Assembly (NCBI GenBank): GCA_964441235.1
Contig: CAYTUQ010000002.1
Span: 1,705-65,704, forward strand
DNA length: 64,000 bases
DNA from: an uncultured bacterium
Lineage (GTDB): Bacteria; Fidelibacterota; UBA2242
Direction of reading: 5' to 3'
Shown here: positions 32,603 through 64,000 of the stretch, one piece after another
How positions within the stretch are numbered: position 1 is the first letter of the stretch
Layout of the letters: each line of letters begins with the position of its first letter
Notes under the pieces: model-generated
What the model saw: the letters and a program-made list of their open reading frames with translations, nothing else
Databases searched by the model: none
What the model was told of the DNA's origin: nothing
Position numbers and translations under genes: made by a program

Positions 32603-33399
32603 TTACACCTGAACAGATTCAAGATTTATCAAAAAAAAAGAGGATAAATCAAGATACTATACTGCGAGAATATCTTCAACTTTTATTTTTGCAGAATCTT
32701 TATAGCGAAAAGTTGTCACAGAAAATTTATTTTAGAGGCGGAACAGCAATTCATTTGCTTTTAGGTTCTTCACGATTTTCAATGGATTTGGATTTTACTT
32801 CAGAAATTTCTACAACTTGTCTGGAAAAATTAATAAAAAAGATTGTTGATAGAATGAATTTGGAAATTCCAGATATCAGATTAAAATCATCAAGAAAAAG
32901 AATCAATCACTCATTTTCTAAGATTCTATCCTATTATCCAAAAGAGAAGAAATACCCTGTTAATATTGCAATTGATTTCTCTTTAAGAGAAAAACCTGTG
33001 AAAAAAACTCAAATAACAGTATTGAAAACTGATTTTCCAATAAGTGGTTTACCTGTAATTTCACATCTACATTGGCAGGAAATCTTAGCAGAAAAAATCA
33101 GGGCAATCTTGATTCGTGGAAAAGGAAGAGATTTATATGATATTTATTATTTGGTTATGAAAAATATCCGCCAGCTGGCAGATTGGGATGTGGTGAAAGA
33201 AAAAATGAAGATATATCCAGAAGTTGATATTGATACAAATATGAATACTCTTATTAGTAGAATTGAAAAATTGGGAAACAAAGAGCTTAAAAATGATTTA
33301 GCCCAGTTTTTACCTGATTCTGAAAGAAATTCTCTTTTGCCAATATTGAAAGACGAGTTAATTAAAGAACTTGAAAAATATAAACAAACACGAGGATGA
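32599..33399 (+). CDS. AbiEii/AbiGii-family nucleotidyltransferase toxin
   Basis: FRGGTAIHLLLGSSRFSMDLDF (GGTAL...R.S.DLDF signature) and GKGRDLYDIYYL are both typical of AbiEii. Confidence 0.8.
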   Translation: MITPEQIQDLSKKKRINQDTILREYLQLLFLQNLYSEKLSQKIYFRGGTAIHLLLGSSRFSMDLDFTSEISTTCLEKLIKKIVDRMNLEIPDIRLKSSRKRINHSFSKILSYYPKEKKYPVNIAIDFSLREKPVKKTQITVLKTDFPISGLPVISHLHWQEILAEKIRAILIRGKGRDLYDIYYLVMKNIRQLADWDVVKEKMKIYPEVDIDTNMNTLISRIEKLGNKELKNDLAQFLPDSERNSLLPILKDELIKELEKYKQTRG

Positions 33400-33490
33400 G
33401 TTTATAATTCGGTGAAAATTATGAACAAAAATAATTACCAAAATTGGACAAATGATGCTTATAATAATTAAATAGGACCATGAAATAGTT

Positions 33491-34216
33491 ATGGATGAAA
33501 AGAGTTGGATAAAAAATAGACCGGAGTATGAAAGACCTCGTGAAAAACTTTTGAAGTTTGGTTCTAAGAATCTTTCTAATTCGGAATTACTTGCTATCTT
33601 TCTTAGAATAGGTGTTAAAGACAAAAGTGCAATTCAACTTGCAGCAGAAATATTAGAAAAATTTGGTGGGATTAGAGGAATTTGTACTGCCAAAATAGAA
33701 GATTTACTTACAATAAAAGGATTGGGTATAGCAAAGATTGCTCAATTAAAAGCAACTTTAGAACTCGCTGAAAGGTATCTTAAAGAAGATGTTAAGCAAA
33801 AATCAATTGTAGAAAGCTCAAAGGAAGTTTTAAATTATCTTCATCATTCAATGCAAGATTTAGATCATGAATTAATGAAAGTAATCCTTTTGAATGGTCA
33901 AAATCAAATAATAAATATTGTAGATTTATTTAGAGGCTCTATAAGTTCATCAAGTGTTTATCCAAGGGAGATAATCAAATTGGCTCTTAAATATTCAGCT
34001 TTAGCAATTGTTATTGTTCATAATCATCCTTCTGGAATTTCAAAACCAAGCGAAGGTGATAAAAAACTTACAAAAGAAATTATTTTTGCATGTATTTCTA
34101 CAGGTATTAAAGTTCACGACCATATAATAATTGGCAATAAAAAGCATTATAGTTTTGCTGATGAGGGAATTATTGAAGTTTACGAAAAAGAATATGAAAA
34201 GAGGATGAAACTATGA
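33491..34216 (+). CDS. radC: RadC-family JAB-domain protein
   Basis: N-terminal PEYERPREKLLKFGSKNLSNSELLAIFLRIG, HhH region (IKGLGIAKIAQLKATLEL) and JAMM motif VHNHPSG...PSEGD. Confidence 0.9.
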   Translation: MDEKSWIKNRPEYERPREKLLKFGSKNLSNSELLAIFLRIGVKDKSAIQLAAEILEKFGGIRGICTAKIEDLLTIKGLGIAKIAQLKATLELAERYLKEDVKQKSIVESSKEVLNYLHHSMQDLDHELMKVILLNGQNQIINIVDLFRGSISSSSVYPREIIKLALKYSALAIVIVHNHPSGISKPSEGDKKLTKEIIFACISTGIKVHDHIIIGNKKHYSFADEGIIEVYEKEYEKRMKL

Positions 34217-36096
34217 GTCCAGTAAAATATCAAAGAGTGGATGAAATAGAAAAAAGGGGATATTTAAGAGATTATGCAACGGGAAAATGGGTTAGGTCAA
34301 GGCCCGAAGAAGGACCAAGACAAATATTTGAAAAAAGGTTAGTTGGAGAATATGGCTACGACAAAGGTCAAATTGAAATTGAGTTCTTAATACAAAAAGG
34401 AGCTAGAAAAATCGGTCCTGCTGATATAGTTGTTTTTCACGATTCAAAAAGAAAAACATTTGATAACATAAAAATAGTGGTTGAAACAAAGAGAAAAGAA
34501 AAAAATGATGGAAAAGATCAATTAAGATCTTATTCAATATCACCATCCCAAGAATTTGCAGTTTGGTTTAACGGAAAAGACATTCTATTTCTACAGGTTC
34601 TGAAAAAAGCACCATGGTTTAGAGAAATCCCAGATATTCCTAAAAAAGGTGAGACATTAGAAGATGTAGGGCTTTATTATAAGAAGGATTTAAAACCTGC
34701 AACAGAACTGAAAACTGTTTTTGAGATTTGTCACAATTATATTTATGCAAATGAGGGACTCTTGAAAGAGAAGGTATTTAATGAGGTGCTAAAACTAATT
34801 TTTATCAAAATGGCTGATGAAAAGAAATCAAATCCCAAATGTGAGTTTAGAATTACTGACAAAGAATTAAAAGAATTAGAAGAGGGCAAAGAAAATGCAT
34901 TTGTGAATAGGATTTTGAATCTTTTTAGTGAAGTAAAAACAAGATATAGTGATGTTTTTGAGAAAAATGAAAGAATATATCTAAGACCTTTAACAATTGC
35001 CTTTATTGTCAGTCAATTCCAAAAATATAGTTTGATTAACACTAAAGCAGATGTTAAAGGAACAGCATTTCAAACATTTGTTTATGCTCATCAAAGAGGA
35101 GAGAGAGGGGAGTTCTTTACACCACATCCAATTGTTGAATTAGCAGTAAATATGCTAAATCCAAAAGACAATGAAAGATTTATTGACCCTGCTTGTGGTT
35201 CTGGCGGTTTCCTTGTTAAAGGAATGAATTATATTAAAGAAAAATTTATTAAAGATAATCCTCATAGGATAACTGAAGCAGATAAATTTATAGGTGAATA
35301 TGCACATTCTTATGTTTCTGGAATTGATATTAATCCTGATTTGGCAAAAGTTGCAAAGATGCACATGATTTTGTATGATGATGGACACACGGGAATTTTT
35401 TCAGCGAATACTTTAGAGAGTTTTGATAATTTGGTAAAAACTGCACAAGAAATGGGAGTTCCAAGAGCAATACAACCAAGACCAAATACTTTTCAAGTTT
35501 TGATGACCAATCCACCTTTTGGGACAAAGGGAAAAGTAACGAATAAAAGAATCTTGGAAAACTTTGAACTTGGCCATAAATGGAAAAACGATAAAGAAAT
35601 AGGAGGATGGATAAAAACAAATAAAATCTTGGATGGGCAAGTTCCAGATATTTTATTCATTGAGAGATGTTTGCGGTTATTGGACAATCATGGTAGAATG
35701 GCAATTGTTTTGCCTGACGGTGATTTAACAAATCAAAATACAGAGCATATAAGAGAATTTATTAAACAAAAAGCAAGATTACTGGCAGTAGTTTCTATGC
35801 CTATTGGAACATTTATGCATGCTGGAGTTAATCCAAAAGCAAGTGTATTGTTTTTACAAAAATTGGATGAAGAAAAATTAGAAGAGTTGAATAGAAAAGA
35901 TTATCCCATCTTCATGGCCATTGCTGAGAGGATAGGCTATGATTTAACAAGTAAAACACCTAAAATACTTTACAAAAGAGATGAGAAGGGAGAGATAATT
36001 AAATATAAAGAAGGAAAACCAATTATTGAATCTGATATTCCAGAAATAATAGAAGCGTTTAACGGATTCAAAAGGAAATATAACTTGAGGTTTTAA
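34213..36096 (+). CDS. hsdM: Type I-like N6-adenine DNA methyltransferase (HsdM-like) with N-terminal PD-(D/E)xK-like (HsdR_N-type) domain
   Basis: Motif I IDPACGSGGFLV, motif IV LMTNPPFGTKG. The N-terminal ~130 aa carries GPADIVVF...IKIVVETKRK (D...E-x-K arrangement). Start overlaps the radC stop (ATGA). Confidence 0.85.
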   Translation: MSPVKYQRVDEIEKRGYLRDYATGKWVRSRPEEGPRQIFEKRLVGEYGYDKGQIEIEFLIQKGARKIGPADIVVFHDSKRKTFDNIKIVVETKRKEKNDGKDQLRSYSISPSQEFAVWFNGKDILFLQVLKKAPWFREIPDIPKKGETLEDVGLYYKKDLKPATELKTVFEICHNYIYANEGLLKEKVFNEVLKLIFIKMADEKKSNPKCEFRITDKELKELEEGKENAFVNRILNLFSEVKTRYSDVFEKNERIYLRPLTIAFIVSQFQKYSLINTKADVKGTAFQTFVYAHQRGERGEFFTPHPIVELAVNMLNPKDNERFIDPACGSGGFLVKGMNYIKEKFIKDNPHRITEADKFIGEYAHSYVSGIDINPDLAKVAKMHMILYDDGHTGIFSANTLESFDNLVKTAQEMGVPRAIQPRPNTFQVLMTNPPFGTKGKVTNKRILENFELGHKWKNDKEIGGWIKTNKILDGQVPDILFIERCLRLLDNHGRMAIVLPDGDLTNQNTEHIREFIKQKARLLAVVSMPIGTFMHAGVNPKASVLFLQKLDEEKLEELNRKDYPIFMAIAERIGYDLTSKTPKILYKRDEKGEIIKYKEGKPIIESDIPEIIEAFNGFKRKYNLRF

Positions 36097-37034
36097 TGAT
36101 GGAAAAAGAAAAAATGACTTTTGAGGATTTTTGGAATCATGAAACAGAATATTTTAAAGAAACGGCAAAAGAAAGTTTTAAAAAAAATAAACAGGGAGTT
36201 GAATATTTTATAGAATATCTCGATAATTATATAGATCTATTTGGCATAAACAAGTATTACCAAAAAGATGAAATAACAAATTCTATTTCTGCTATGTTTC
36301 TCTTTTACTCCTTTAAACAATTGCGATGGGTTAATCATGAGATTCTATCAGGTGCTTATTTTGAGGCAATCAGAGATTTAAGATTTGCATTTGAAACTAT
36401 TGTTTGGGCACATTTTTTAGATGAGTGGATTAACGAAAAAACAAAAGAATACCTAAAAGTAAGTATAGGAGCAGGAATATCTTTAAAATATGAGATTTTA
36501 AAGTTAAGAGATGAGATATATGATGTCAAAGGTTATAGAAAAAAGAAAAATGAAAGAGAGAAAATAGTTAAGGAAAATGTTGGCAAATTCATAAAAAAGC
36601 ATGCCCAAGATTTTACAAACGAAGAAACGTGGAAATATAAAGAACTTTATTTTGAAATCTTGAAGAACTTGGGAGTTGGATTTACTGGAAAAAATGGATT
36701 AATTGCTAAACTTCCCTTAGAAGAGGAAGATGAAAAGAAGTTGGACAAACTTTATTCAGAATTATCAAAATATATCCATCCATCAAACAGAATAATAAAA
36801 CCGTTTTATGAAGACGATATTGGTTTAATCTTTAATTTTTGCTATAATAAAATATTATTTAATAGCTGTATGAGGTTTCTTGTAGATGTTATGGACTTAT
36901 TTTATGCCATTCTTTACGTCCATTTTGAGAAACTTAGAGAAGTGATTAAAGAAAAAATTGTAGATTTTTGTAAGGTTAATTTTAATATGGAATTTCCGAT
37001 AACTGAAAAATTAATACGGGATGACCTAGTATGA
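36096..37034 (+). CDS. Hypothetical all-alpha protein inserted between hsdM and hsdS
   Basis: 312 aa. Start overlaps the hsdM stop (TAATG) and the stop overlaps the hsdS start (ATGA). No catalytic motif recognised. RDLRFAFETIVWAHFL and LSKYIHPSN faintly recall HEPN/AbiV-like helical proteins. Confidence 0.6.
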   Translation: MMEKEKMTFEDFWNHETEYFKETAKESFKKNKQGVEYFIEYLDNYIDLFGINKYYQKDEITNSISAMFLFYSFKQLRWVNHEILSGAYFEAIRDLRFAFETIVWAHFLDEWINEKTKEYLKVSIGAGISLKYEILKLRDEIYDVKGYRKKKNEREKIVKENVGKFIKKHAQDFTNEETWKYKELYFEILKNLGVGFTGKNGLIAKLPLEEEDEKKLDKLYSELSKYIHPSNRIIKPFYEDDIGLIFNFCYNKILFNSCMRFLVDVMDLFYAILYVHFEKLREVIKEKIVDFCKVNFNMEFPITEKLIRDDLV

Positions 37035-39439
37035 TAATTTCAGAAGCAAAATTTTCAGAAGCTTATACCAAACTAAGATTTGATGCTGAATATTTTAAAA
37101 CAGAATTCATTGAAACACGATATAGATTAGAAAAAATTAATGCATCCAAACTTACTTCTATTGCTGAAATATCAAAATTAAGGAGGGATCCTACAAAAGA
37201 ATCGGATAAAGAATTTATATACATTGATATAAGCAATATTGATACATCTGTTGCTGATGTCAGTACACAGAAAATAATAGGTTATAAAGCACCAACAAGA
37301 GCGAGAAAATTAGTTCAAACAGGAGATGTTATAGTATCTACTGTACGACCGAATAGAAATGCCGTCGCAATTATACCAAAAGAATTAGATAATAGCGTTT
37401 GTTCTACAGGCTTTTGTGTTTTAAAACCGACGGAAGTAAATTTGCATTATTTGTTTGTTTTCTTAAAAACAAAATATGCAATAAATCAACTAGTAAGAGA
37501 AACTATGGCTTCTATGTATCCCGCAGTTAGTGAAGATCAAATTAAAAAGATATTGGTGTTTTTACCATCTTTTGAATTCCAGTTTCACGTAGAAAAACTC
37601 GTCAAAGAAGCATTTTCAAAACGAAAACTTGCTGATGAAAAATACAAACAAGCAAAACAACTTTTAGAAAAAGAATTAGGACTTGATAAATTAAAATTAA
37701 AAGAAGAAAAAACATTTGAAGCAAAATCATCAGAACTATTTGGAAGTAGAAGATTTGATTCTGAGTACTACAAGCCGAAGTGCAAACAAATCATAAGGTT
37801 TCTTAAAAATTCTGGGTTTGAAGTAAAGAAATTAAAAGAGATTGTAAAAATTTCAAATAAGAAAATTGACCCAACAAAGGAGCCAACCAAAAGGTTTAGA
37901 TATGTTCCAATAGCAAAGATAAATTCAAATGGAGAAATTGATGAGTGGGATGAATTTAATGGTTGGCAGGCACCAAGCAGGGCAAGAATGCTTATTAAAA
38001 AAGGGGATGTTTTAGTCTCATCATTAGGTGGTTCGCTTAACAAAATAGCATTAGTTCCTGAAGAATTAAATAATTCAATTGCTACAACAGGAACCTTTGT
38101 CATCAATTCTGAAAACTTTTATAGTGAATTCTTATTTTTATTATTCAGAACAGAACTAATCAAATTGCAGTTGGAGCGGAAAACAGCAGGTGCAATAATG
38201 ACTGCTGTTCCTAAAACAACTTTTGGAAATTTACTAATTCCAATTATTCCAAAACAAAAGCAAGAAAATATTGCAAAATTAATAAACCAATCTTTTACTT
38301 TGAGAAAAGAAGCAAAACAACTTTTAGAAGAGGCAAAAGAAAAGGTGGAAAGTATGATAGAAAATCCTTTAGAAATCTCTGAAACCCAACCCGTTCTCCG
38401 TAGTCCTGATAAAATTGGGACGAAGGGTGAACCTGAGATTATTATCCCTTTTCCTATTCCTTCAAAATTAATAAGCCTTAAACCGCCTGTCAAAGTAAAA
38501 TATAAAGATTACCAAATGCTTGATGGTTCAATAAAGAAATTGGTTCAACAAATAGGAGATGGTTCAATCATTAAAAGATTTGAAAAAACACCAATACCTA
38601 AAAGTAAAATAGATGTAGTTTGTCCTCATTTTCTTGAATTAAAATGGGCAACAGGATGTCCTTATGATTGTTCCTGGTGCTATCTGAAAGGAACTTTTAG
38701 ATTCTTGCCGTATAAAGCGAAACCACATATTAAGGATTTTGATAAGATAGAAAAACATACAAAGACATTTTTGGAATATGTTCAAACTCCTGAAGTATTA
38801 AATACAGGTGAGCTGGCAGACTCACTAATGCTTGAAGTAAAGAATAAATCATTTGTTAAGTTTATTGTTCCACTTTTTGAAAACCAAAATAAGCATAAGA
38901 TTCTCTTTTTGAGTAAATCAAACAAAATAGAAAATCTTTTATTACTTAATACACATCGTCAGGTTATAGTAAGTTTTAGTCTTAATGCTATTCCTGTGGC
39001 ACAAAGATGGGAAAAGAAAGCACCTTCAGTTGAAGACCGCATAAAAGCAGCAGGGATTCTATACAAACAACGATTTGAAGTAAGGATAAGGATAGACCCA
39101 ATGATCCCTGTGGAAAACTGGGAGCAACTTTATACTGATTTAATAGACCGCATATTTAATTCGTTTATACCTGAAAGAATTACTTTAGGTTCTCTTAGAG
39201 GATTACAGAGTACTATCAATGGAACATCAGATAAGTCCTGGGTAAAATATCTATCTGAACGCTCAAACTGGGGAAGAAAAATAGATATTAATTTAAGGCT
39301 TGCTATGTACAAAACAATTATCTCTTATTTAAATGAAAAGTATAAATATAATAAGGTCGCTCTTTGCAAAGAAACTTTGGCAATTTGGGATATACTAAAT
39401 ACGAATTATAAAAATATAAAATGTAATTGTGTGTGGTAG
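37031..39439 (+). CDS. hsdS: Type I restriction-modification specificity subunit (two TRDs) fused to a C-terminal radical-SAM-type (CX3CX2C) domain
   Basis: - aa 1-~440: two TRDs (RFDAEYF...STGFCVLKP...; RFDSEYY...TTGTFVINS...) separated and followed by the conserved S-subunit coiled-coil spacers (EKYKQAKQLLEKEL; EAKQLLEEAKEKVESMIEN).
- aa ~440-500: Pro-rich linker.
- aa ~500-802: VVCPHFLELKWATGCPYDCSWCYLKG (CX3CX2C), then an alternating beta/alpha pattern (ILFLSKSN, VIVSFSLN, RIRIDPMIP) reminiscent of SPL/COG1533-type radical SAM enzymes. Confidence 0.75.
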   Translation: MIISEAKFSEAYTKLRFDAEYFKTEFIETRYRLEKINASKLTSIAEISKLRRDPTKESDKEFIYIDISNIDTSVADVSTQKIIGYKAPTRARKLVQTGDVIVSTVRPNRNAVAIIPKELDNSVCSTGFCVLKPTEVNLHYLFVFLKTKYAINQLVRETMASMYPAVSEDQIKKILVFLPSFEFQFHVEKLVKEAFSKRKLADEKYKQAKQLLEKELGLDKLKLKEEKTFEAKSSELFGSRRFDSEYYKPKCKQIIRFLKNSGFEVKKLKEIVKISNKKIDPTKEPTKRFRYVPIAKINSNGEIDEWDEFNGWQAPSRARMLIKKGDVLVSSLGGSLNKIALVPEELNNSIATTGTFVINSENFYSEFLFLLFRTELIKLQLERKTAGAIMTAVPKTTFGNLLIPIIPKQKQENIAKLINQSFTLRKEAKQLLEEAKEKVESMIENPLEISETQPVLRSPDKIGTKGEPEIIIPFPIPSKLISLKPPVKVKYKDYQMLDGSIKKLVQQIGDGSIIKRFEKTPIPKSKIDVVCPHFLELKWATGCPYDCSWCYLKGTFRFLPYKAKPHIKDFDKIEKHTKTFLEYVQTPEVLNTGELADSLMLEVKNKSFVKFIVPLFENQNKHKILFLSKSNKIENLLLLNTHRQVIVSFSLNAIPVAQRWEKKAPSVEDRIKAAGILYKQRFEVRIRIDPMIPVENWEQLYTDLIDRIFNSFIPERITLGSLRGLQSTINGTSDKSWVKYLSERSNWGRKIDINLRLAMYKTIISYLNEKYKYNKVALCKETLAIWDILNTNYKNIKCNCVW

Positions 39440-39451
39440 AAAGGAAAGATT

Positions 39452-40549
39452 ATGTCTATTAAAGAAACAATATGGAAGATTGAACTGCACACACAGGCAA
39501 AGCATGAAATACTAAAGCGGTATCTTCAAGCGTGGCTTCCAATAATGAGTACTGTTAGTGGGCGTATTTTGTATATTGATGGCTTTGCAGGTCCAGGAAA
39601 GTATTTAGACGAAAATAATCAGCCAACTATTGATGGCTCTCCACTTGTGGCTATGAATGCAGCAATAAAGCACAAGTTACCGCTAAAGGCGGAGATAGTA
39701 TTTCTTTTAATTGAAGCAGACCCTAAAAGATTTGACTATCTTAAAAATTTGCTTTCAGAAATAACTTTTGCAGATAGTATGAAATATAAAGTAGTATGTA
39801 GTAAATTTGATGAAACTCTTACATCTATTCTAAACGACTTTGATGAGCAGAAGAAACAATTAGCTCCAACTTTTGCATTCATTGACCCATTTGGATATTC
39901 CGATACACCTCTTGCAGTTGTTAAACGAATAATGGAGAGCCCAAAGTGTGAGGTCCTTATTACATTTATGTATAGTTTTATAAAAAGAGCTATTGTCAAA
40001 CTCGACCAAGAAGATCATCTAGACATTCTTTTTGGTACCCAAGAATGGAGAAAAATTCGAGATATTGGTTATCCTTCAAAGAAACGAGAATTTGCCCAGC
40101 AACTTTATAAAAAACAATTGGAAAAGGAAGCCAATATAAAATATGTGCGTTTTTTTGAGATGATTAATAAGTTCAATCAAACTGAATATTTTTTATTTTT
40201 CGGAACTAATAGTCTTGAAGGACTTAGATATATGAATTCGTCAATGTGGAAAGTTGATCCGAGTGGAACATTTCAATTTTCTGATAGAACAAATCCTAAT
40301 CAAACAGTGCTCTTTACTCTAGAGCCTAACTATAACTTACTTAAAAGATTAATTGTCAGAGAATATAAAGGTAAAACGGTCTCAGTTGAAGAAGTTGATG
40401 AATTTGTATTAGTGGCTGGTTTCACTCATTTCAAAAAGAATATTTTGGAACCTATGGAAAGAGCAAAACCTGCTCAGATAGAAGTGATTAAGAGTAATAG
40501 GAAGAGAAGATATACTTATCCACCAAGAACTATAATTAAATTTTTGTAA
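39452..40549 (+). CDS. TcmP-like (three-Cys-motif partner protein family) protein, possible RlmJ-like methyltransferase fold
   Basis: 365 aa, 12 nt after the fusion gene and preceded by AAAGGAAAG. HTQAKHEILKRYLQAWLPIM, RILYIDGFAGPGKY, DGSPLVAMNA and FAFIDPFGYSD match my recollection of TcmP (TIGR04474) N-terminal halves. The same motif order occurs in RlmJ-type methyltransferases. Confidence 0.5.
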   Translation: MSIKETIWKIELHTQAKHEILKRYLQAWLPIMSTVSGRILYIDGFAGPGKYLDENNQPTIDGSPLVAMNAAIKHKLPLKAEIVFLLIEADPKRFDYLKNLLSEITFADSMKYKVVCSKFDETLTSILNDFDEQKKQLAPTFAFIDPFGYSDTPLAVVKRIMESPKCEVLITFMYSFIKRAIVKLDQEDHLDILFGTQEWRKIRDIGYPSKKREFAQQLYKKQLEKEANIKYVRFFEMINKFNQTEYFLFFGTNSLEGLRYMNSSMWKVDPSGTFQFSDRTNPNQTVLFTLEPNYNLLKRLIVREYKGKTVSVEEVDEFVLVAGFTHFKKNILEPMERAKPAQIEVIKSNRKRRYTYPPRTIIKFL

Positions 40550-55716: not shown

Positions 55717-56388
55717 ATGGAAAATAAAATGAATTTTGATGATCTTTATTTAAATAGAGTGATTTTGGAATTTAGATATGATGGAGGATTTCTATATTGG
55801 GACAAATGTGGAGAAACAATTTTAGATATTCAGAGTAATTTTCCTGAGTGGAATTGGGAAGGAATTTCAACTGAATTAGCAAGGTTGAAAAACCATACAA
55901 GAAATATGGAACTTGTGTTTAATTATAAAAATATACGCTTCATTCAAAATGAAGTCGAGAATCTGAACCAGTTCAAAGAAGCAGCAAGTAAGATTACACC
56001 AATAATTGTCAAAAGCCTTGAGATAAACAAATTCAAGCGAATAGGTAACAGATATCAGTATGTTTTTCCTCTGGAGAATCCTGAGCAGGGCAAGAAAATC
56101 ATAAGAGAGAGTTCCTTGATTAAAATACCTGAGGGAAAACTGGCCTTGTTTGGAGAGAATTCCATTAAAACTAATTTTATTGTCCACATTGAAAACGAAA
56201 ATTATCGTTACAGGATTGAACTTGTAGGCATCGAGCGAGTTGAGGTGCCAAAGAATATTAAGATTGATGAGCGGTTTAACCCCAAATATGGACTGCGTGT
56301 TGATGTAGATATTGCTACTATTAATAAAGTTAATGCTTTAGATTTTGATTGCAGTAGCTTTATTCAATCAAGCAAGAAGTTCCTGTAA
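55717..56388 (+). CDS. TIGR04255-like family protein
   Basis: LNRVILEFRYDGG near the N-terminus and FKRIGNRYQYVF parallel the ...VIEAVFEIRF... and ...NRTGLRYINHI... motifs of the clearer family member at 58883. Confidence 0.5.
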   Translation: MENKMNFDDLYLNRVILEFRYDGGFLYWDKCGETILDIQSNFPEWNWEGISTELARLKNHTRNMELVFNYKNIRFIQNEVENLNQFKEAASKITPIIVKSLEINKFKRIGNRYQYVFPLENPEQGKKIIRESSLIKIPEGKLALFGENSIKTNFIVHIENENYRYRIELVGIERVEVPKNIKIDERFNPKYGLRVDVDIATINKVNALDFDCSSFIQSSKKFL

Positions 56389-56439
56389 AATAATTTAATT
56401 AAATTTATCTAAGAATCAGTGATAAAGGAGGTAGTTCTT

Positions 56440-57087
56440 GTGAATAACACAACCACTGAGACAAGAATTGATGAGAGAGGTGAAGGAATCGCCAAATATG
56501 TTCTCTCAAGAGGAATGACTCAGGTTGAAACTGTAGGCACGTTCCCAAAAGAGCAATTTGCACCGTTCTATTTGCCAACAGAGGAAGAAGAAACTCATAA
56601 GGAATTAGAAGAAACAGATATGACTTTATCAACATCTCCTACAGGTGAAATTGAAAGAGAAATTATACCCACTATAAAAAGGCTAGTTGAAATCATTGAA
56701 TCTGCAATTAGTTTGCTTGATGAGGTATTGGAAGTTTATGATGATGAGATTGAAAGGATAAACACGTTTTCACTCTTTGAAGAAGAAATTAAATCTCTGT
56801 GGGAGTTACGGGAAGAGGCAAACAAGAACTTTGTAGATGTTCTCGTTCTTTTAGAAGTAGCAGCTAAAAATTCACATTATAAAAATTATCAGAAACATCA
56901 GTACCAATCTATAAAAATGGTTTTAGAAAAAATTAAGAGTATCTATATCACACCCCAGAACGCAAGAGAATGTAGAAGATTATTAATGGACAATGGGATT
57001 GACCTTTTTGCTCCTATCAGAAACTGGGAGAATTATACAGTTGAAATAAAGAAAAATAGTATCCTCTCAATAAAGCATGGTAAATAA
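56440..57087 (+). CDS. Hypothetical acidic coiled-coil protein
   Basis: GTG at 56440 lies 9 nt after AAGGAGG (56424-56430). No recognisable motif. Immediately downstream of the TIGR04255-like gene. Confidence 0.5.
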   Translation: MNNTTTETRIDERGEGIAKYVLSRGMTQVETVGTFPKEQFAPFYLPTEEEETHKELEETDMTLSTSPTGEIEREIIPTIKRLVEIIESAISLLDEVLEVYDDEIERINTFSLFEEEIKSLWELREEANKNFVDVLVLLEVAAKNSHYKNYQKHQYQSIKMVLEKIKSIYITPQNARECRRLLMDNGIDLFAPIRNWENYTVEIKKNSILSIKHGK

Positions 57088-57326
57088 ATTCTAAATTCTA
57101 ATATCTAAACTCTAAACAATTTTAAAATTCAAATGTTCAAATGCTCAAAATTCGGCAGATGCTGGACCGATGATTAAATGGATTCCCGTCGATACTTTTG
57201 GTCATTTTGATTTTGGGTTTTTAATTTGTTTAGTATTTCGGATTTCGTACTTCGGATTTTACCTTGTTGGAAATTTACTAATATCAAAGAAACTTACCAT
57301 AAGATATTGAGCGGATACGAAAAATA

Positions 57327-58019
57327 TTGAAACAAAATAGAAAGTTATTTTTAGAAACCACTATCCAGATAGATCGGTTCTCTGCTGACCTAGATAAAAA
57401 GGAAAGAATAGATAAGATAATTTCCCAGTTTAGCCAGATTCTAAGTTCTACTTACGTGAAGATGGAATTCAGAAGAAGGTTTATCCAGGATTTAGTTTAC
57501 CTTTACAATGAAGCCATTTGGGGTGCTGAAACTTTTGCCGATGTCTATGCTAGAATTGACAAACTACATTCTGATTTCCATAAAAGGAAAATTAAAGGGA
57601 TAGTTGCCAGTTTTTACAGATTTTTTTCAGATACCAAAGATGAAGAAATTTCAGGAACATTAGGTAAGATAATTTTAGAAAAAGTAAGACCGTATTTTAA
57701 ACAAATTATATTAGCTGCCTGGGAAAGTTTTGATTTTGGGATCAATACAATACTAAATGAGATTAATTGCTATCATGGATTGAGAGGTCCAGTTCAAAAA
57801 GGCGGGAAGTTTGATAATAGGATGAGCAAGTGTAAAAAAGCAGATATAAGATGTAAGATTCAGGAATTCTTCAATAGAAATATGGAAACTTTCAGAAAAA
57901 TATATGACAAATTTTCTCAAATGGACTGTTTGGATAGTGAACAACAAAAGATGAAGAAATTCTTGAAAAATATAATTCGCTTGAAGGGCTTGCAAATCAG
58001 CCACTTGAAAATTTATTGA
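57327..58019 (+). CDS. Hypothetical protein (weak PIN-like N-terminal pattern)
   Basis: 230-aa ORF, TTG start. LFLETTIQIDRF...LSSTYVKMEF is loosely like the first two acidic positions of PIN domains. Not convincing on its own. Confidence 0.4.
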   Translation: MKQNRKLFLETTIQIDRFSADLDKKERIDKIISQFSQILSSTYVKMEFRRRFIQDLVYLYNEAIWGAETFADVYARIDKLHSDFHKRKIKGIVASFYRFFSDTKDEEISGTLGKIILEKVRPYFKQIILAAWESFDFGINTILNEINCYHGLRGPVQKGGKFDNRMSKCKKADIRCKIQEFFNRNMETFRKIYDKFSQMDCLDSEQQKMKKFLKNIIRLKGLQISHLKIY

Positions 58020-58108
58020 AAATTAAAGGCATATCCGACGTGAAGATAATACGAATAGCTGCAGCTTTTGAAATAGCACTGAGACTGATAGAAAGAAAGA
58101 AGAAATAA
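57971..58108 (+). pseudogene. RadC N-terminal (HhH) fragment
   Basis: In a frame different from ORF 57327-58019: YNSLEGLANQPLENLLKIKGISDVKIIRIAAAFEIALRLIERKKK*. This parallels IEDLLTIKGLGIAKIAQLKATLELAERYL of the intact RadC at 33491. No JAB domain follows. Confidence 0.6.
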
Positions 58109-58158
58109 TTTGTCTAATAAGAAAACCAGGCTAACTGAAAGAGCAACAAGTTATTTTA

Positions 58159-58536
58159 AAAGGGATTATTACTGAGAGTGGAACATATTATTATGAAACA
58201 AATAATATAAATGAGGCATTATATTTACTATCTGTTCTAAATTCGGTAATAGTAGATAAACTTGTCAAACCACTTCAAGTGCGTGGGCTATGGGGATCCC
58301 GTCATTTTCATAAAAAAGTTCTCAAGCTGCCCATTCCGCAATTTGGTGTAAATAATACGCATCATCATAGACTAGCAGAAATTGGTAAAGAATGTAGTAA
58401 AAAAGTAGAAAAATGGTTAAAATGTGGTGGAGTGGGAAAGATTAGAAGTATTGGGAAGTTGCGGAGTATGGTGAGGGAAATGTTGAGGGGAGAGTTGGGG
58501 GAGATTGATGGGGTGGTGGAAGGGATTCTTAGATAA
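58159..58536 (+). pseudogene. C-terminal fragment of a TRD-like / DNA-methyltransferase-associated protein family (AT-rich copy)
   Basis: Frame is open from 58159 without a start. GTYYYETNNINEALYLLSVLNSVIVDKLVKPLQVRGLWGSRHFHKKVLKLPIPQFGVNNTHHHRLAEIGKECSKKVEKWLKCGGVGKIRSIG is a paralogue of 60309-60740. Confidence 0.55.
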
Positions 58537-58882
58537 AAAAAAGCACAAAGGATAAAACAGAAGTTATTTGCGAAATATTATAACTCGTTTCATAATGAAT
58601 TATCAAATTGATTTTTTAATAAAGATTTAGACGAGGGAGTTTTTAAATGACTTATGCAAAATTTCTTGTTGATTTATTTATTTCATTTACTTAAAATAAT
58701 TATAGGAAAGATGTACAAGAGAAGAAATATTGCCTTATCATTTAAATCTGTTGTATTATTGGGTATTAATTTTACGATTTTTGATTACTTTTTGAACAAT
58801 TGAGTGAGGAAAGTAGTCAAGAGATTGGGAATAGAATATTAAACTTTTAATCAGAATTGGTTAAAGTAAATCTGAGGACAAA

Positions 58883-59581
58883 ATGAATACTAAATATATT
58901 GATCCTCCTGTTATAGAGGCTGTTTTCGAAATTAGATTTCCTGCAGAATTATCTATAGAATCTCAAAGAGATAAGTACTATGAAAAGATTAGAGAATATT
59001 TCCCCGATATTTCCGTTCCTAAGGTTGAAAGTCCAGAGCCTTATCCTCTAAAACCTTATCGGTTTGAAACTTCTGATAAATTAAAGATGATCCAATTTTC
59101 AATCAATAGATTTTCTTTTCATACTAAGAAGTATAATACATTTAATGAATTCAATACGGAAGTGATTAATTATATTGAATCTTTTTGCGAGCTGTATAGA
59201 ATATCAAAACTCAATAGAACAGGATTAAGATATATCAATCACATTCCTATAGAACGAGAAAATGGAGTTTTGCAAATATCTAAATATTTGAAATTTGGAT
59301 ATATTTTACCTGATATTATTCCAAGCAACTTAGAACTGTTTCAAACGGTCTTATTGTCACGAATTGAAGAGGGGAAATTAAGGATATTAATTGCTTCTCA
59401 AAATGCAATAGGTACCGGGGATGGAGAGATTATGGTGCTTGACTTTGATTTCTTTTTTGAGGGTGATCTTTCTGTAGATTTGTTAAAGAATTATTTACAA
59501 AATTCTCATATACATACTAAGAAAGTTTTTGAAAGTTTGATTAGTAAAGAATACAGAAGTATTCCAGAGAAAGGGGATTAA
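58883..59581 (+). CDS. TIGR04255-family protein
   Basis: N-terminal YIDPPVIEAVFEIRFPAEL and internal LNRTGLRYINHIP match my recollection of the TIGR04255 signature (PPL.EVV.ElrF...R.GLRYiN). Confidence 0.65.
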   Translation: MNTKYIDPPVIEAVFEIRFPAELSIESQRDKYYEKIREYFPDISVPKVESPEPYPLKPYRFETSDKLKMIQFSINRFSFHTKKYNTFNEFNTEVINYIESFCELYRISKLNRTGLRYINHIPIERENGVLQISKYLKFGYILPDIIPSNLELFQTVLLSRIEEGKLRILIASQNAIGTGDGEIMVLDFDFFFEGDLSVDLLKNYLQNSHIHTKKVFESLISKEYRSIPEKGD

Positions 59582-60061
59582 ATGGATGTTTCTGGTGAAA
59601 CAGTTGAAAAGTTAACTTATCACAATATGTATGATTATCCGGGTGGACAGATTGAGACTTACAAGGGATGGACAGGACCCGGCAAATTTATTGCTCAGGG
59701 AGGTTCCTATGTACCTTTAGCCTATGTTCCGATAAGGCGTGAAGTTCTAACTATGCTTTTATCAGTTGATTCCCAGGTACAAGGCATTATTGAAAAAATA
59801 AATGGCTTGGAAAATAGAGTTTCTACGTTGGAAAAAGGAATTTCATCGGTAGGGATGATTGAGATTTCTGAATCAAATCCAATTGAAGGTAATATTAGGA
59901 TAACAAAAACGGAGGCGAGGAAAAAGATATTAAAACACTTTCAGCTAAGAGGTGAGTTAGATTACTTTGACATAGTAGAAGATCTTGGTCTAGACTTGAA
60001 ATTTGTTGTTGAAATTTGTGAAGAACTAGAAAATGAGAAAGAAATAAAAGCAGTAAAATAA
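59582..60061 (+). CDS. Hypothetical protein with C-terminal wHTH-like region
   Basis: ATG follows the upstream stop directly (TAAATG). Central coiled coil. The C-terminus KKILKHFQLRGELDYFDIVEDLGLDLKFVVEICEELENEKEI looks like a winged helix. Confidence 0.5.
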   Translation: MDVSGETVEKLTYHNMYDYPGGQIETYKGWTGPGKFIAQGGSYVPLAYVPIRREVLTMLLSVDSQVQGIIEKINGLENRVSTLEKGISSVGMIEISESNPIEGNIRITKTEARKKILKHFQLRGELDYFDIVEDLGLDLKFVVEICEELENEKEIKAVK

Positions 60062-60308
60062 TGCCAATATATTTCAAAGAGGGGGATGCAATTCAGGGTG
60101 AAAAATTAGTTTTCACTTGTAGGAAATTTAGTATCTCTAAGAAACCTGTAAAACGAACATCAGCTCATAGAGCACAGAGTGGGAAATTAGATAACGCATA
60201 TTGTGTAATAAATAAGCGTTTTAGGCACATACCAGAGAAATGAAGGTAAAAAAGTATCAATTATATGCTATTTTAAAATAAAATCATCATGTAATTTACA
60301 AATATCGA

Positions 60309-60740
60309 GTGATTTGTAATACTTCGGGGACATTTCTTACTGCTGCAACTGTTGAAAATGAACCTATAGCATTTGAGATTAACGGTCAGAAAATTATATC
60401 AAATGGATTCGTAGCTGATTATGTAACTTACTATTTCGAAACATCAAATTTTAAAGAAGCATACTATCTTAGTTCAATTCTGAACTCTCCTATCCTGAAC
60501 ATTCTGATCAAGCCTATGCAAGCACGGGGCTTATGGGGTCCTCGGGATATTCATAAAAAAGTTCTCGAGTTGCCCATTCCGCAGTTTGATGCGGAAAACT
60601 CCCAACATCGGCAATTGACTGAATTGGGCCAAGCCTGCTCTGCCAAAGTCAGGCAGTGGGTCAACAGCGGCGGTCTCGGCAATATTCGCAGCATCGGTAC
60701 GCTGCTCACACGATGGAAACGTTATACGAAACCGGTATAA
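60309..60740 (+). pseudogene. C-terminal fragment of the same TRD-like family (GC-rich copy)
   Basis: VTYYFETSNFKEAYYLSSILNSPILNILIKPMQARGLWGPRDIHKKVLELPIPQFDAENSQHRQLTELGQACSAKVRQWVNSGGLGNIRSIG. The 3' half is visibly much more GC-rich than its surroundings. No N-terminal catalytic part. Confidence 0.55.
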
Positions 60741-60967: not shown

Positions 60968-61312
60968 TTTATATGAAAGTAACCACGAATTACACTAATT
61001 ACACTAATTGAAACCGTTCACCCCGTTAGATACTTACTATTTTAAACAATGAATATCTATCAGGGGTTGTTATCTTACGGGGTTCATGGTTTACAGTTTA
61101 TGGTTAACGGTCTCTTAATCCCACCCCGATTTGTATAAGTTAGTTTTGAACATTAGACATTGAGATTTGTAATTTGTTTGAAATTTGATCCGCCAGCTGG
61201 TGGATTAATATTTGCAATTTGCAATTTGATATTTATTTTGTCTCAGCCTTTTTAAATTTCACGCTTCGTTGTGGTGAAAAATCATGGGTGTTATTAACAA
61301 TATGTTGCTAAT

Positions 61313-62281
61313 ATGTACTTTGAAGCTGAATTAAACGAAGCCATTCGGTTGAAACAGAAGAAGGAATATCACCGGGCATGGGAACTGTTTGATGAGATTT
61401 CAAAGTCCAATCCCCGGTCGGCTTATTTCTGGTCCAATTATGCCCATTTGGCATTCCTGATGAACCGATATCAGAAAGCAAAGGAGTTTTCGGAAACGGC
61501 TTTGAGCATTGACCCCCTGTCCAGATTTGTGAGGTCGTTATATTCATCTATCCTGCTTCACACTAATGATACAGCGTCTTCTCTGGAATTAATACAGGAA
61601 CTCATCGAAGAAAAAATGGAAGTTCCTCTTTTGAAAAAATTGGTGAAAGCCGGTGAATCTCTGGGAATTCTCAACGATCTTGAGCCGTATTTCAATGATT
61701 GGATTCTACGATTTCACAGTGATAGAGAATTTGTTTCAACAGCGGCTGAGTATTACCATAAAATTGGTAAGACAGAGAAGACAATTGAACTTTATCAACG
61801 ACTGGTATCGGAAGAAAAATCAAACGATTTTATTTATGAACGTTTGATAGCACTTAAGACACTGGGCAAGTCAAGTCAGGAAAAAATCCGCGAACTGGAA
61901 ATAATACTGAAGCTTCCATCTCAGGAGAGGAATATTCACCTACTTGGTCTGTTGGCACGAGAGTACAAGAAAAGCAAGGAGTGGGGAAAGGCAGAACAAA
62001 CATATCGCAAGATACTTTCCATTAATCCTGATGATTTGTTTCAAAAGAAACAGATGGGATTTCTCTACGCCCGGAGTGGCAATCTGGAACAGGCTGTTGA
62101 AATCTTGAAAGATTGTTTATTTAAAGACCCAGACGACCATTTTGTCCGTAGTTCCCTGCTCTCAGCTTTTAAAAAGATGAACAGTAAGGAAAAAGCTCTT
62201 CAATTCATTGATCAGTTGCTCCTCCATTATCCTGAGAAGAAGAGTTATCTGGGTATTCGGAAAAGAGTTGAGAAGTGGTAA
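61313..62281 (+). CDS. TPR-repeat protein
   Basis: 322 aa with repeated 34-aa A/Y/L patterns (e.g. WGKAEQTYRKILSINPDDLFQKKQMGFLYARSGNLEQAVEILKDCLFKDPDD). Confidence 0.7.
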   Translation: MYFEAELNEAIRLKQKKEYHRAWELFDEISKSNPRSAYFWSNYAHLAFLMNRYQKAKEFSETALSIDPLSRFVRSLYSSILLHTNDTASSLELIQELIEEKMEVPLLKKLVKAGESLGILNDLEPYFNDWILRFHSDREFVSTAAEYYHKIGKTEKTIELYQRLVSEEKSNDFIYERLIALKTLGKSSQEKIRELEIILKLPSQERNIHLLGLLAREYKKSKEWGKAEQTYRKILSINPDDLFQKKQMGFLYARSGNLEQAVEILKDCLFKDPDDHFVRSSLLSAFKKMNSKEKALQFIDQLLLHYPEKKSYLGIRKRVEKW

Positions 62282-62356
62282 TTGATAATTGGTGAGTGGT
62301 GTTTACTTAAATGTAAAAATTCAGTAAACTACGTCTGACTTAAAAAAAGATTAAAA

Positions 62357-62582
62357 CGCAGAGGCGCAGAGAACGCAGGGAGAAAAAGAAATATTGTAAA
62401 TAGATAAGATGTCGAAAATAGTATCATTAATTAGACGCTAAGGAAAGTTGAAAGATTATGAACATATATTTTAAACAGAGATTGTGAAATGAATAGGAAA
62501 ATTAACATAACTAATCATAAAAATTCTGCGTCTAAAGAATATTATATATCATTTAAATCTCTGCGTTCTCTGCGCCTCTGCG
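62357..62582. repeat. 226-bp element with 24-bp terminal inverted repeats of CGCAGAG modules
   Basis: CGCAGAGGCGCAGAGAACGCAGGG (62357-62380) against CTCTGCGTTCTCTGCGCCTCTGCG (62559-62582): 23/24 complementary. The AT-rich 178-bp core has an extra CTGCG. Ends 56 nt before the BrxC-like start. Confidence 0.85.
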
Positions 62583-62638
62583 TTTATAAATTTGGTTCTT
62601 TTTTTGTTCTGGTTTGTCCAAGTTAGGTGCACAACACT

Positions 62639-64000
62639 ATGAATAAACATGACCTAAAAATAGCTGATCTCATCACCGTTCCACCAGTGGAGACGGTAAT
62701 TCAACTTGAAACGGCGGACAGCAGAGATTTAGATCTCAGCCGGGGACTCCTCACCTCATTCGTACTCACTGATGAAATCGAAAATGCCCTTGCTCAACTT
62801 TTTACGCACATTCTGGAAAAGAAGGGTGCAGGGGCATTCCTGAAAGGGAATTACGGCTCCGGTAAATCTCATTTTCTGGCTGTCGTCTCATTGTTGTTGG
62901 AATCAAACCAGTGCTGGCAGTTTATCACTCACCCTCTACTCAAACAGTTTTCTGACATTCAGAAGCAACAGACTTTAATCGTAAAAATTGCTCTACATAA
63001 CTATTCAGCCGGAGAACCTCTGGAAGCTATTATTCTGGAAGAAACAGAAAAGGCGCTTCAAGACCGAACTGGTAAACCCATACTTCTCCGCAGTAAGGCT
63101 TTGCTGATTGAGCATTTCAACCGATATATCCTTCCACAGCATTCAGAATTCTTAAAATCCGCTGACCACTCCAGAGAGAGTTGGAAACGTTTTTGTAAAA
63201 CTGATCTGTCCCAAGCAGTGAAAAAGGTCACTGCCTTCATCCAATCCCATGGTATTCCTCTAAAAGCGCAATTCGATCGCCGTCAATCCCTTAGAACACT
63301 CCTATCATTTTTGAAGAACGAGCAATTTGCGGGGATATTCTTCGCCGTAGATGAACTATCGGAATTCCTGAAATCCAAAAGCAATTCATCCCTCCTCTCT
63401 GAAGACCTTCGCTTTTTACAGTTTCTTGGGGAAGCATGCAAACAGAACCCTTTCTATCTGGTAGCTACCCTCCAAGAAAATATTGAACAAACGGGGTATG
63501 TGGAAGATGACCTGGTATACCGGATCAAGGACCGTTTCCCCTTAAGATTTAGCCTGTCTGCACACCACGTCAACCAGTTGATTTCCAAACGTCTTGTACA
63601 AAAGAAAGCAGGTTCGGATAAACCCATCCAGGTTGTGTACGACCGTTTCCGGTCATCTTTTCCAAAACTTGAAGTGGGACCAAAGACATTTACCGAAATA
63701 TATCCGGTTCATCCGGATACGGTTACTATGCTGGAAGGTCTGACACCTATCTTCTCCCAACACCGAGGAGTGGTGGACTTCATCTATCACCAGTTGACAG
63801 GTGATGAAAACAGGCAATGGGATGGAATGCTTTCACTTGGTGCCGATTGCCTGATGACTCCCGACACCATCTTTGACCATTTCCGCGAGCGAATCAAAGA
63901 GCACCCGGATTTAGAAGCCTATTCGGAAGTTGTATTCAAAACTATAGAGCGTGAAATCCCTGCTTTGTTTGAATCAGAGAAGGATCAACATATTGCCCTT
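62639..64000 (+). CDS. Large P-loop ATPase, BrxC/PglY-like (DUF499/DUF6079-type), 5' part only (runs off window)
   Basis: Open frame from ATG 62639 to the window end (454 codons; absent from the ORF track because it has no stop). IADLITVPPVETVIQLETAD...FVLTDEIENAL...LKGNYGSGKSHFLAVVSLLLE (Walker A), FFAVDELSEFL (Walker B), IYPVHPDT, FSQHRGVVDF. This pattern matches the N-terminal thirds of BREX-type ATPases. Confidence 0.55.
   Translation, partial: MNKHDLKIADLITVPPVETVIQLETADSRDLDLSRGLLTSFVLTDEIENALAQLFTHILEKKGAGAFLKGNYGSGKSHFLAVVSLLLESNQCWQFITHPLLKQFSDIQKQQTLIVKIALHNYSAGEPLEAIILEETEKALQDRTGKPILLRSKALLIEHFNRYILPQHSEFLKSADHSRESWKRFCKTDLSQAVKKVTAFIQSHGIPLKAQFDRRQSLRTLLSFLKNEQFAGIFFAVDELSEFLKSKSNSSLLSEDLRFLQFLGEACKQNPFYLVATLQENIEQTGYVEDDLVYRIKDRFPLRFSLSAHHVNQLISKRLVQKKAGSDKPIQVVYDRFRSSFPKLEVGPKTFTEIYPVHPDTVTMLEGLTPIFSQHRGVVDFIYHQLTGDENRQWDGMLSLGADCLMTPDTIFDHFRERIKEHPDLEAYSEVVFKTIEREIPALFESEKDQHIAL

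Follow-up and report, generated by a model that had tools for sequence, protein, structure and literature searches.

A fused BrxC–PglZ protein with a TPR partner gene: a candidate two-gene cassette derived from the BREX core in an uncultured Fidelibacterota bacterium

How bacteriophage exclusion (BREX) systems stop phage replication is still unresolved a decade after they were described. Recent work points to an ATP-dependent assembly of BrxC, BrxB and PglZ and to the nuclease activity of PglZ: the AAA+ domain of BrxC binds the BrxB:PglZ complex in an ATP-dependent manner, BrxC itself dimerises and binds DNA (PMC13326643), and PglZ is a metal-dependent nuclease that nicks and cleaves DNA (PMC12205998). 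A recent survey also notes BrxC and PglZ homologues that co-occur outside the known BREX types (PMC12839542). In this work, we examine the right end of a 64,000-nt stretch of DNA from an uncultured bacterium of the Fidelibacterota (contig CAYTUQ010000002.1, positions 1,705 to 65,704 of the forward strand; hereafter, the window), where a gene for a tetratricopeptide repeat (TPR) protein is followed by a giant open reading frame (ORF) that runs off the window. Both members of the BREX core, BrxC/PglY and PglZ, are present here as one fused polypeptide. We consider it probable that the two genes at the right end of the window stand alone as a cassette that descends from the BREX core and works by the mechanism proposed below.

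A BrxC-type ATPase and a PglZ domain in one polypeptide

The original prediction, drawn from the letters of the window, described an ORF that opens at 62639 and stays open for 454 codons. This is borne out: the frame starts with an ATG at 62639 and is open up to base 64000, and all of the motif blocks quoted for it (VPPVETVIQLE, FVLTDEI, GNYGSGKSH, VDELSEF, IYPVHPDT and FSQHRGVVDF) are found in the translation, where they are conserved blocks of the fusion family alignment as well. The locus was extended by looking up the complete TPR protein by exact sequence, which led to six short-read (Logan) contigs (L001 and five others) that are 100% identical to window positions 61020-64000 and reach 8.3 kb past the window end (window coordinate = L001 coordinate + 61019). 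The giant ORF (5247 nt) ends at window-equivalent 67885, giving a product of 1748 aa. An independent 30-kb contig from the Joint Genome Institute (JGI; L134) is 99.99-100% identical over window-equivalent 50549-70061, and because it spans the junction at this identity, the arrangement is genuine rather than an assembly chimera. Of the explanations we considered, the least probable is that the giant gene is a remnant in decay, or that its fusion is an artefact of an assembly or frameshift error. Although the gene is split into 2-4 gene calls at several related loci, in long-read or low-coverage metagenome-assembled genomes (MAGs), the ORF described here is unbroken, identical in six independent assemblies and present in the JGI contig, and its architecture recurs in more than 100 cluster representatives (1600-1850 aa), with the catalytic residues invariant.

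The assignment of the N-terminal part to the BrxC/PglY-type (DUF6079) P-loop ATPases also stands. The 454 residues in the window match the Pfam DUF6079 profile, which is called BrxC-PglY_N in newer Pfam annotations, with E 4.4e-39, and the PADLOC BrxC model with E 2e-32; for the full protein, these values are E 4.7e-46, well over the gathering score, and E 2e-38 (PDLC02482). DUF6079 is matched by 28/28 scanned family members. On the 454-aa fragment, to which the NCBIfam comparison was confined, BREX_BrxC scores 86.7 bits (cut-off 400) and PglY 25.1 bits (cut-off 1700), and identity to canonical BrxC is just 20-24%, over the first ~360 aa only. These low scores and identities suggest a separate branch.

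By sequence, the only detectable relatives with solved structures are the Acinetobacter BrxC constructs. An AlphaFold2 model of a homologue (P0002, 790 aa, 40% identical to the window protein; predicted local distance difference test score 92.5) has its best Foldseek matches in the PDB to BrxC (9zll and 9zdx, E 1e-13, TM 0.6), followed by ORC/Cdc6 (E 1e-5). In the homologue models, the modules after the ATPase agree with those of BrxC, comprising a winged helix-turn-helix (wHTH), an alpha+beta domain, one or more further wHTHs, a long coiled coil and a small distal subdomain. From these models, the giant protein is predicted to consist of an AAA+ ATPase with its lid, a wHTH and alpha+beta domain, two wHTHs, a ~360-aa coiled coil whose Cys knob is rich in loops, a small terminal alpha/beta unit at which PglZ-less relatives end, a ~220-aa helical linker and a ~190-aa PglZ core. 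At 1748 aa, it is unlike stand-alone BrxC (~1200-1300 aa) in size, with the linker and PglZ core forming a fused extension of ~450 aa. Residue conservation was read from an alignment of 46 full-length members, in which the arginines R299 and R376 are invariant, as are the cysteines C1153, C1167 and C1169 (CxCGF motif).

The original prediction looked for BREX genes beyond the window, whereas PglZ sits at the C-terminus of the ORF itself. When canonical BREX loci are searched with a hidden Markov model (HMM) of the ~190 C-terminal residues of the family, their canonical PglZ ORFs are retrieved with E 1e-13 to 2e-8, and the motif blocks DAMRWD, SPTNTE, TSDHGF and HGG are collinear with those of PorX. 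The metal ligands of the PglZ site (D1582, D1587, D1673, H1677, D1716, H1717 and H1728) form a complete set and are invariant, the nucleophile T1619 is conserved in at least 90% of the 46 members, and the same motifs are found in three divergent loci (L007, L010 and L011). A fold test on a homologue model returns a nucleotide pyrophosphatase/phosphodiesterase (NPP)-type alpha/beta fold, closest to PorX and PglZ; these profile and fold tests supersede a direct sequence search of the PDB with the C-terminal 232 aa, which gave PorX only below threshold (E 0.5). The protein stops ~20 residues past the HGG motif, and only the helical linker lies upstream of the PglZ core; the flanking domains of BREX-type PglZ (N-terminal BrxB-binding; C-terminal immunoglobulin (Ig)-like or wHTH) are not present in the giant protein. 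We conclude that the C-terminal domain is a compact PglZ, predicted from its motifs to be catalytically complete.

This anatomy bears directly on the proposal that the ORF is a brxC or pglY gene on the border of a canonical BREX/Pgl locus with several genes, in which pglX, pglZ and brx genes would follow. The match of BrxC/PglY profiles to the N-terminus and the foreign composition of the region are what such an edge would display, whereas the fusion of PglZ into the same ORF is not. Furthermore, the next 4.4 kb contain no PglX, BrxA, BrxB, BrxL, BrxP or PglW, and instead hold a DUF7718/DUF5647 gene pair followed by PbeA, PbeB and PbeC, which refutes the proposal for the 8.3 kb of the extension, and none of these six BREX families recurs in 38 related loci. 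A canonical locus edge is therefore very improbable, and the hedge in the original prediction that the system was possibly atypical was apt.

The TPR partner gene and the distribution of the cassette

The TPR gene, which the original prediction handled as incidental, proves to accompany the giant gene as its conserved partner. When 481 neighbouring ORFs were clustered all against all, one dominant family emerged, that of the TPR protein. A homologous TPR gene (~292-402 aa) lies directly upstream of the giant gene in 30/45 related loci, mostly on the same strand and often overlapping the giant's start codon by 3-18 nt. Among the 28 loci with a PglZ end detected by tblastn, it is found upstream in 21 of the 25 with at least 1 kb of upstream sequence. 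The partners are only 13-25% identical to one another and share little apart from the TPR scaffold positions and a conserved basic C-terminal tail (G..KK..K). The pairing of the two genes is conserved, and our confidence in both the anatomy and the pairing is high.

An exhaustive HMMER search with one family member (P0074) resolves 247 clusters (50% identity), the majority of which are 1600-1850 aa long, with Walker A near residue 65 and an ending of the form DHGF...HGG. All come from MAGs and are named only 'hypothetical protein' or 'DUF6079 family protein'. When one genome per species was scanned with the family alignment, ~59 family loci were recovered, again all in MAGs, from ~18 named lineages; the other loci returned are canonical BrxC. 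These lineages comprise Halanaerobiales, Bacillota, Fermentibacteria, Actinomycetota, Spirochaetota, Fibrobacterota, Calditrichota, Planctomycetota, Desulfobacterota, Bdellovibrionota, Myxococcota, Gammaproteobacteria, Acidobacteriota, Nitrospirota, Gemmatimonadota, Eremiobacterota/Xenobia, Dormibacterota and Armatimonadota. The distribution is patchy, and identity across lineages is 22-35%. The 454-aa fragment itself has no match in 185,579 species genomes, where the best locus found with the family alignment is only 31% identical, so that the source organism is not represented among them; in word-indexed protein searches, the N-terminus returned only fragments of <800 aa and the C-terminal half only 2 matches, and the family came into view only with the exhaustive search. 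The PglZ end is in frame with the ATPase in 38 loci.

Besides the TPR gene, the only recurrent neighbours are superfamily 2 (SF2) helicases, with RecQ adjacent in 3 loci and SNF2 in 4; neither occurs in the window. RecQ was considered as a third core component and rejected, being absent from the window and the extension and adjacent in 3 loci only. Across 108 genes that neighbour the related loci, neither a methyltransferase nor a Brx family is seen repeatedly. Two exceptional arrangements are observed within the family. In one sub-branch (L008, L032, L034 and L045), the protein is ~1340 aa long and has no PglZ end, a low-complexity protein of 219-236 aa replaces the TPR protein upstream, and the neighbourhood is a conserved, housekeeping one with ATP synthase and peptidyl-prolyl isomerase genes, which suggests vertical inheritance and perhaps a different role. 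In an Acidobacteriota MAG (L009/L036), an IS21-type element splits the giant gene after ~residue 590, leaving the TPR gene in place; the C-terminal part of the giant gene, including the PglZ end, is inverted and lies upstream, and there is no apparent replacement copy.

The base composition of the region was described in the original prediction as visibly richer in G+C from about 61.3 kb onwards. This shift is real, although it is narrower than described and limited to the two genes. Against a background of 0.345 (window positions 1-61019 in 1-kb windows; sd 0.032, maximum 0.412), G+C is 0.401 in the TPR gene and 0.444 in the in-window part of the giant ORF, with the whole ORF at 0.435 (z = 3.7 relative to 5.2-kb background windows). 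It is not raised in the spacer between the two genes (0.305) or in the genes past the giant ORF (0.32-0.33). G+C at third codon positions (GC3) is ~0.42 in both cassette genes (0.424 in the TPR gene) compared to 0.21-0.35 in the other genes of the window and 0.24-0.26 in the Pbe genes, and the foreign composition claimed for the region is upheld by both measures. The closest orthologous locus (L007; TPR 64% and giant 59-70% identity) contains both genes and no Pbe genes, and Pbe modules occur elsewhere without the giant gene. What is portable is therefore the TPR gene together with the giant gene, in keeping with the foreign GC3 that both show. The two-gene cassette was probably acquired by horizontal transfer.

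In the window, the two genes are parted by an inverted-repeat element whose existence had been noted correctly, with a length of 226 bp that has to be corrected to 232 bp. Its terminal arms (62354-62381 and 62558-62585) are 28 nt each, 96% complementary and separated by 176 nt, and the arm sequence occurs at only these two sites in the whole window (chance expectation 0). The element is AT-rich, has a fold z-score of -8 and matches no Rfam family; Rfam, promoter and terminator scans of 60.7-62.7 kb gave nothing usable. At the orthologous locus L007, the element is absent and the spacer is ~75 nt. It is not part of the conserved cassette, and may be a miniature inverted-repeat transposable element (MITE)-like insertion that has separated two genes that overlap in most relatives.

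Proposed mechanism, competing explanations and surrounding genes

Our confidence that the cassette serves in defence, by the mechanism that follows, is moderate and draws on analogy with BREX. The ATPase and coiled-coil part would bind DNA and oligomerise in an ATP-dependent manner, as BrxC does. In type 1 BREX, BrxB is the bridge by which PglZ is recruited to BrxC; here, the covalent link would take its place, making both BrxB and the BrxB-binding domain of PglZ dispensable. Once bound to DNA, the scaffold would position the PglZ domain, which would nick or cleave invading DNA or hydrolyse a nucleotide signal. The TPR partner might act as a sensor, regulator or inhibitor that gates the enzyme, standing in for a self-marking methyltransferase, and a RecQ or SNF2 helicase may assist where one is present. 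The expected outcome would be a block on the replication of phage or mobile DNA without epigenetic self-marking.

Several observations weigh against this proposal. The Pfam PglZ profile (PF08665) matches marginally, at 25.6 bits (E 1.4e-5) where the cut-off is 25, and is reached at E 1e-3 by only 5/28 family members; both structure models represent homologues rather than the protein encoded in the window. The PglZ domain could act on DNA or, as PorX does, on oligonucleotides. The defence role is inferred from homology, and the part given to the TPR partner is proposed by analogy. Neighbours in related loci are mostly diverse housekeeping genes, and PADLOC defence models match only a handful of the 108, each model matching one neighbour, such that enrichment in defence islands is unconvincing. 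Finally, a search of 2.9 million viral contigs returned no family member and only canonical BrxC-like N-termini.

Much of this would be expected of the main rival, in which the cassette would maintain or repair chromosomal DNA as a machine analogous to Rad50-Mre11/SbcCD, with an ATPase, a coiled coil bearing a Cys knob and a metallo-phosphoesterase working alongside RecQ or SNF2. In addition to the housekeeping neighbours, the scarcity of matches to defence models and the absence from viral contigs, this explanation would account for the helicases adjacent in 3 and 4 loci, the PglZ-less subgroup in its conserved housekeeping neighbourhood, and the modelled coiled coil with its three invariant cysteines. 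It is less readily reconciled with a patchy spread over ~18 lineages at 22-35% identity or with a TPR partner that evolves very fast (13-25% identity). In the window, the cassette is foreign in composition and lies among restriction-modification remnants and toxin-antitoxin-like and Pbe genes; one copy has been disrupted by IS21 without apparent replacement; and each half has its closest relatives among the BREX immunity proteins. For these reasons, we regard a maintenance machine as unlikely, though it is the strongest competitor to the BREX-derived defence cassette.

A second competing explanation arises from the genes downstream of the BREX-derived cassette. PADLOC identifies a PbeA helicase (E 1e-236) and the start of PbeC (E 7e-65), with a 62-aa ORF between them that is sized like PbeB, which is 66 aa in the founding PbeABCD system (PMC6459918). 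Conceivably, the giant protein and the Pbe module form one phosphorothioate-linked system in which the former is a component resembling SspC or that of type 4 BREX. The distance of only ~1.2 kb to pbeA and weak matches of the giant protein to PADLOC SspC models (E 1e-12 to 1e-5) speak for this possibility, as does type 4 BREX itself, which is phosphorothioate-based and has a BrxC homologous to SspC (PMC12839542). BrxC models nonetheless outscore SspC on the full protein (E 2e-38 versus 7e-11), and neither L007 nor any of the other loci examined has Pbe alongside the cassette. For their part, Pbe modules with 87% identity to the local one adjoin a PRTase-CE gene without the giant gene and continue with PbeD (PF27807) and a radical S-adenosylmethionine (SAM) gene. 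GC3 also separates the two (0.42 in the cassette versus 0.24-0.26 in Pbe), and no dndC or other dnd gene, sspD or 3'-phosphoadenosine 5'-phosphosulfate (PAPS)-reductase gene was seen within the 8.3-kb extension. A single phosphorothioate-linked system is hence improbable, to a far greater degree than a maintenance machine.

Having favoured the BREX-derived cassette, we also put forward a broader idea, to which we give somewhat less than even credence. In this tentative scheme, the TPR gene and the fusion would constitute an unrecognised, methyltransferase-free, two-gene 'minimal BREX' immune system that is widespread in uncultured bacteria, with the BrxC scaffold and PglZ effector restricting invaders and the TPR protein replacing epigenetic self-marking as the control of the trigger. 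If this is true, BrxC and PglZ are the restriction engine of BREX, and the cassette is the simplest system in which to study the BREX mechanism. A two-gene system would allow the ATPase, DNA-binding and phosphodiesterase activities to be dissected apart from the methylation branch. It also prompts one to ask how self escapes when there is no modification; the TPR partner, conserved and fast-evolving, is the obvious candidate for this role.

No methyltransferase (PglX/BrxX) or BrxP PAPS reductase is found between 61020 and the end of the 8.3-kb extension, and the nearest intact methyltransferase found (34213-36096) lies 27 kb upstream in a different cluster. BrxA, BrxB/iSTAND, BrxL, BrxHI/HII, BrxD and PglW have no profile match in the locus with Pfam or PADLOC, although the TPR partner or the giant protein may conceal a cryptic iSTAND- or BrxA-like fold. 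Exact-match scans of the JGI metagenome collection yielded no contig reaching past window-equivalent 72281. At the other end, a Logan contig coming from the left (L136) stops at the same base, 61020, where the six contigs begin, and the JGI contig bridges the junction; this break may reflect strain-level variation or an insertion boundary. Coordinates are collected in Table 1.

Further upstream, the window contains a second defence-like cluster (32599-40549), comprising an AbiEii toxin, RadC, a mad2-like N6 methyltransferase with an HSDR_N domain, a type I specificity subunit fused to a radical-SAM/spore-photoproduct-lyase-like domain (37031-39439) and a PDC-M30A candidate protein (39452-40549). 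Closer to the cassette, 58144-58536 and 60309-60740 each hold a remnant of a type IIG restriction-methyltransferase, from its C-terminal end, and the two are homologous (55-60% aa identity). They cover positions ~977-1052 of the 1100 in the PADLOC model (E 4e-7), and each is preceded by an unannotated gene block; the pair looks like the product of serial insertions, each leaving a copy of the same 3' gene end. Between xanthine-dehydrogenase-type genes and the cassette, and interleaved with these two remnants, is a run of ORFs of 223, 222, 230, 232, 159 and 60 aa (55717-60243) that have no Pfam or PADLOC match.

Table 1. Features of the cassette and its borders, in window coordinates unless stated otherwise.
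Feature	Position	Strand	Remarks
Left limit of the traceable cassette	61000..61020	.	six Logan contigs start at 61020, beside short tandem (TTACACTAA)x2
TPR partner protein, 322 aa, first cassette gene	61313..62281	+	matches many Pfam TPR families
232-bp element with terminal inverted repeats	62354..62585	.	spacer between TPR gene and giant gene
First 454 codons of the 1748-aa BrxC-PglZ fusion	62639..64000	+	ORC/Cdc6-type AAA+ ATPase module; ORF continues to 67885
Walker A GNYGSGKS, aa 70-77	62846..62869	+	G70, G73, G75 and K76 invariant in 46 members
Walker B D238-E239	63350..63355	+	both invariant in 46 members; aligns with Walker B region of Acinetobacter BrxC
DUF7718/DUF5647 small-gene pair, PbeA, 62-aa PbeB-sized ORF, PbeC start	L001 7242-11262 = window-equivalent 68261-72281		beyond the window

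Comparison with known systems

The cassette was compared with the closest known systems. PorX, a response regulator of type IX secretion and a PglZ-domain phosphodiesterase (PDB 7pv7, 8ted), carries a receiver domain and serves in signalling, where its substrates are cyclic and linear oligonucleotides, whereas the PglZ domain of the cassette is shorter (~190 aa versus ~290 aa in PorX) and is attached to a putative DNA-binding AAA+/coiled-coil scaffold. As a separate observation, a type IX secretion system (T9SS) sorting domain is encoded in the window, a hint of the Bacteroidota/FCB group. With the Avs/AVAST systems, the cassette shares, by analogy only, the combination of an ATPase, a fast-evolving TPR module and a nuclease-type effector without a modification enzyme. 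Avs proteins, in contrast, are STAND NTPases with the TPR array in the same chain, while here, the ATPase is of the ORC/Cdc6 AAA+ type and TPR is encoded by a separate small gene. PbeABCD, the phosphorothioate-dependent defence system of Xiong et al. 2019 (PMC6459918), lies directly downstream of the cassette, yet it is a separate module of different composition.

Parallels are also provided by the type-3 BREX-related (BR) and HerA/FtsK-centred systems of Rakesh & Krishnan 2026 (PMC12839542). Like the cassette, they combine a trimmed PglZ with an ORC/Cdc6-type ATPase (DUF499 or DUF6079) outside classical BREX. In both, however, PglZ is a separate gene, which is accompanied in type-3 BR by a methyltransferase, a helicase and iSTAND, and in the HerA/FtsK-centred systems by HerA/FtsK, GNAT, TGT, STAND and DUF4007. 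None of these components is present here or recurs in related loci. Text searches of the same survey turned up no mention of a BrxC-PglZ fusion, TPR or RecQ, and no description of a DUF6079/PglZ-BrxC fusion or of a TPR-paired cassette was found in the searchable full-text literature. Because the cassette lacks the modification enzyme and the accessory genes of BREX, it is not to be filed under BREX types 1-6 (Goldfarb 2015; PMC12839542), type-3 BR or the HerA/FtsK-centred systems, and lies outside all of them. Tools that require every gene of a BREX set would presumably fail to recognise it as such a system.

A further comparison is with type 1 BREX of Acinetobacter, E. coli and Salmonella (PDB 9zll, 9zdx, 9zn5 and 9nv3). 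Its BrxC is the closest match to the ORC/Cdc6-type AAA+ fold of the giant protein, and the modelled winged helices and coiled coil after the ATPase are arranged as described for BrxC (PMC12839542). The two also have in common a binuclear metallo-phosphoesterase of the PglZ type with a Thr nucleophile, and the fusion unites two proteins whose ATP-dependent association is known (PMC13326643). Where type 1 BREX has separate BrxC (~1200-1300 aa) and PglZ (~840-880 aa) proteins, the cassette has one chain of 1748 aa, in which the PglZ part is reduced to the helical linker and the ~190-aa core, and the BrxB-binding N-domain and C-terminal Ig-like domain are gone. The cassette also has no BrxB, BrxA, BrxL or PglX and a TPR partner instead; with no PglX methyltransferase, there is no evident epigenetic discrimination of self. 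The fusion has shed BrxB, the BrxB-binding domain of PglZ, the methyltransferase and all other Brx genes, and as a natural joining of BrxC to PglZ, it offers independent evolutionary evidence that the two act as one unit.

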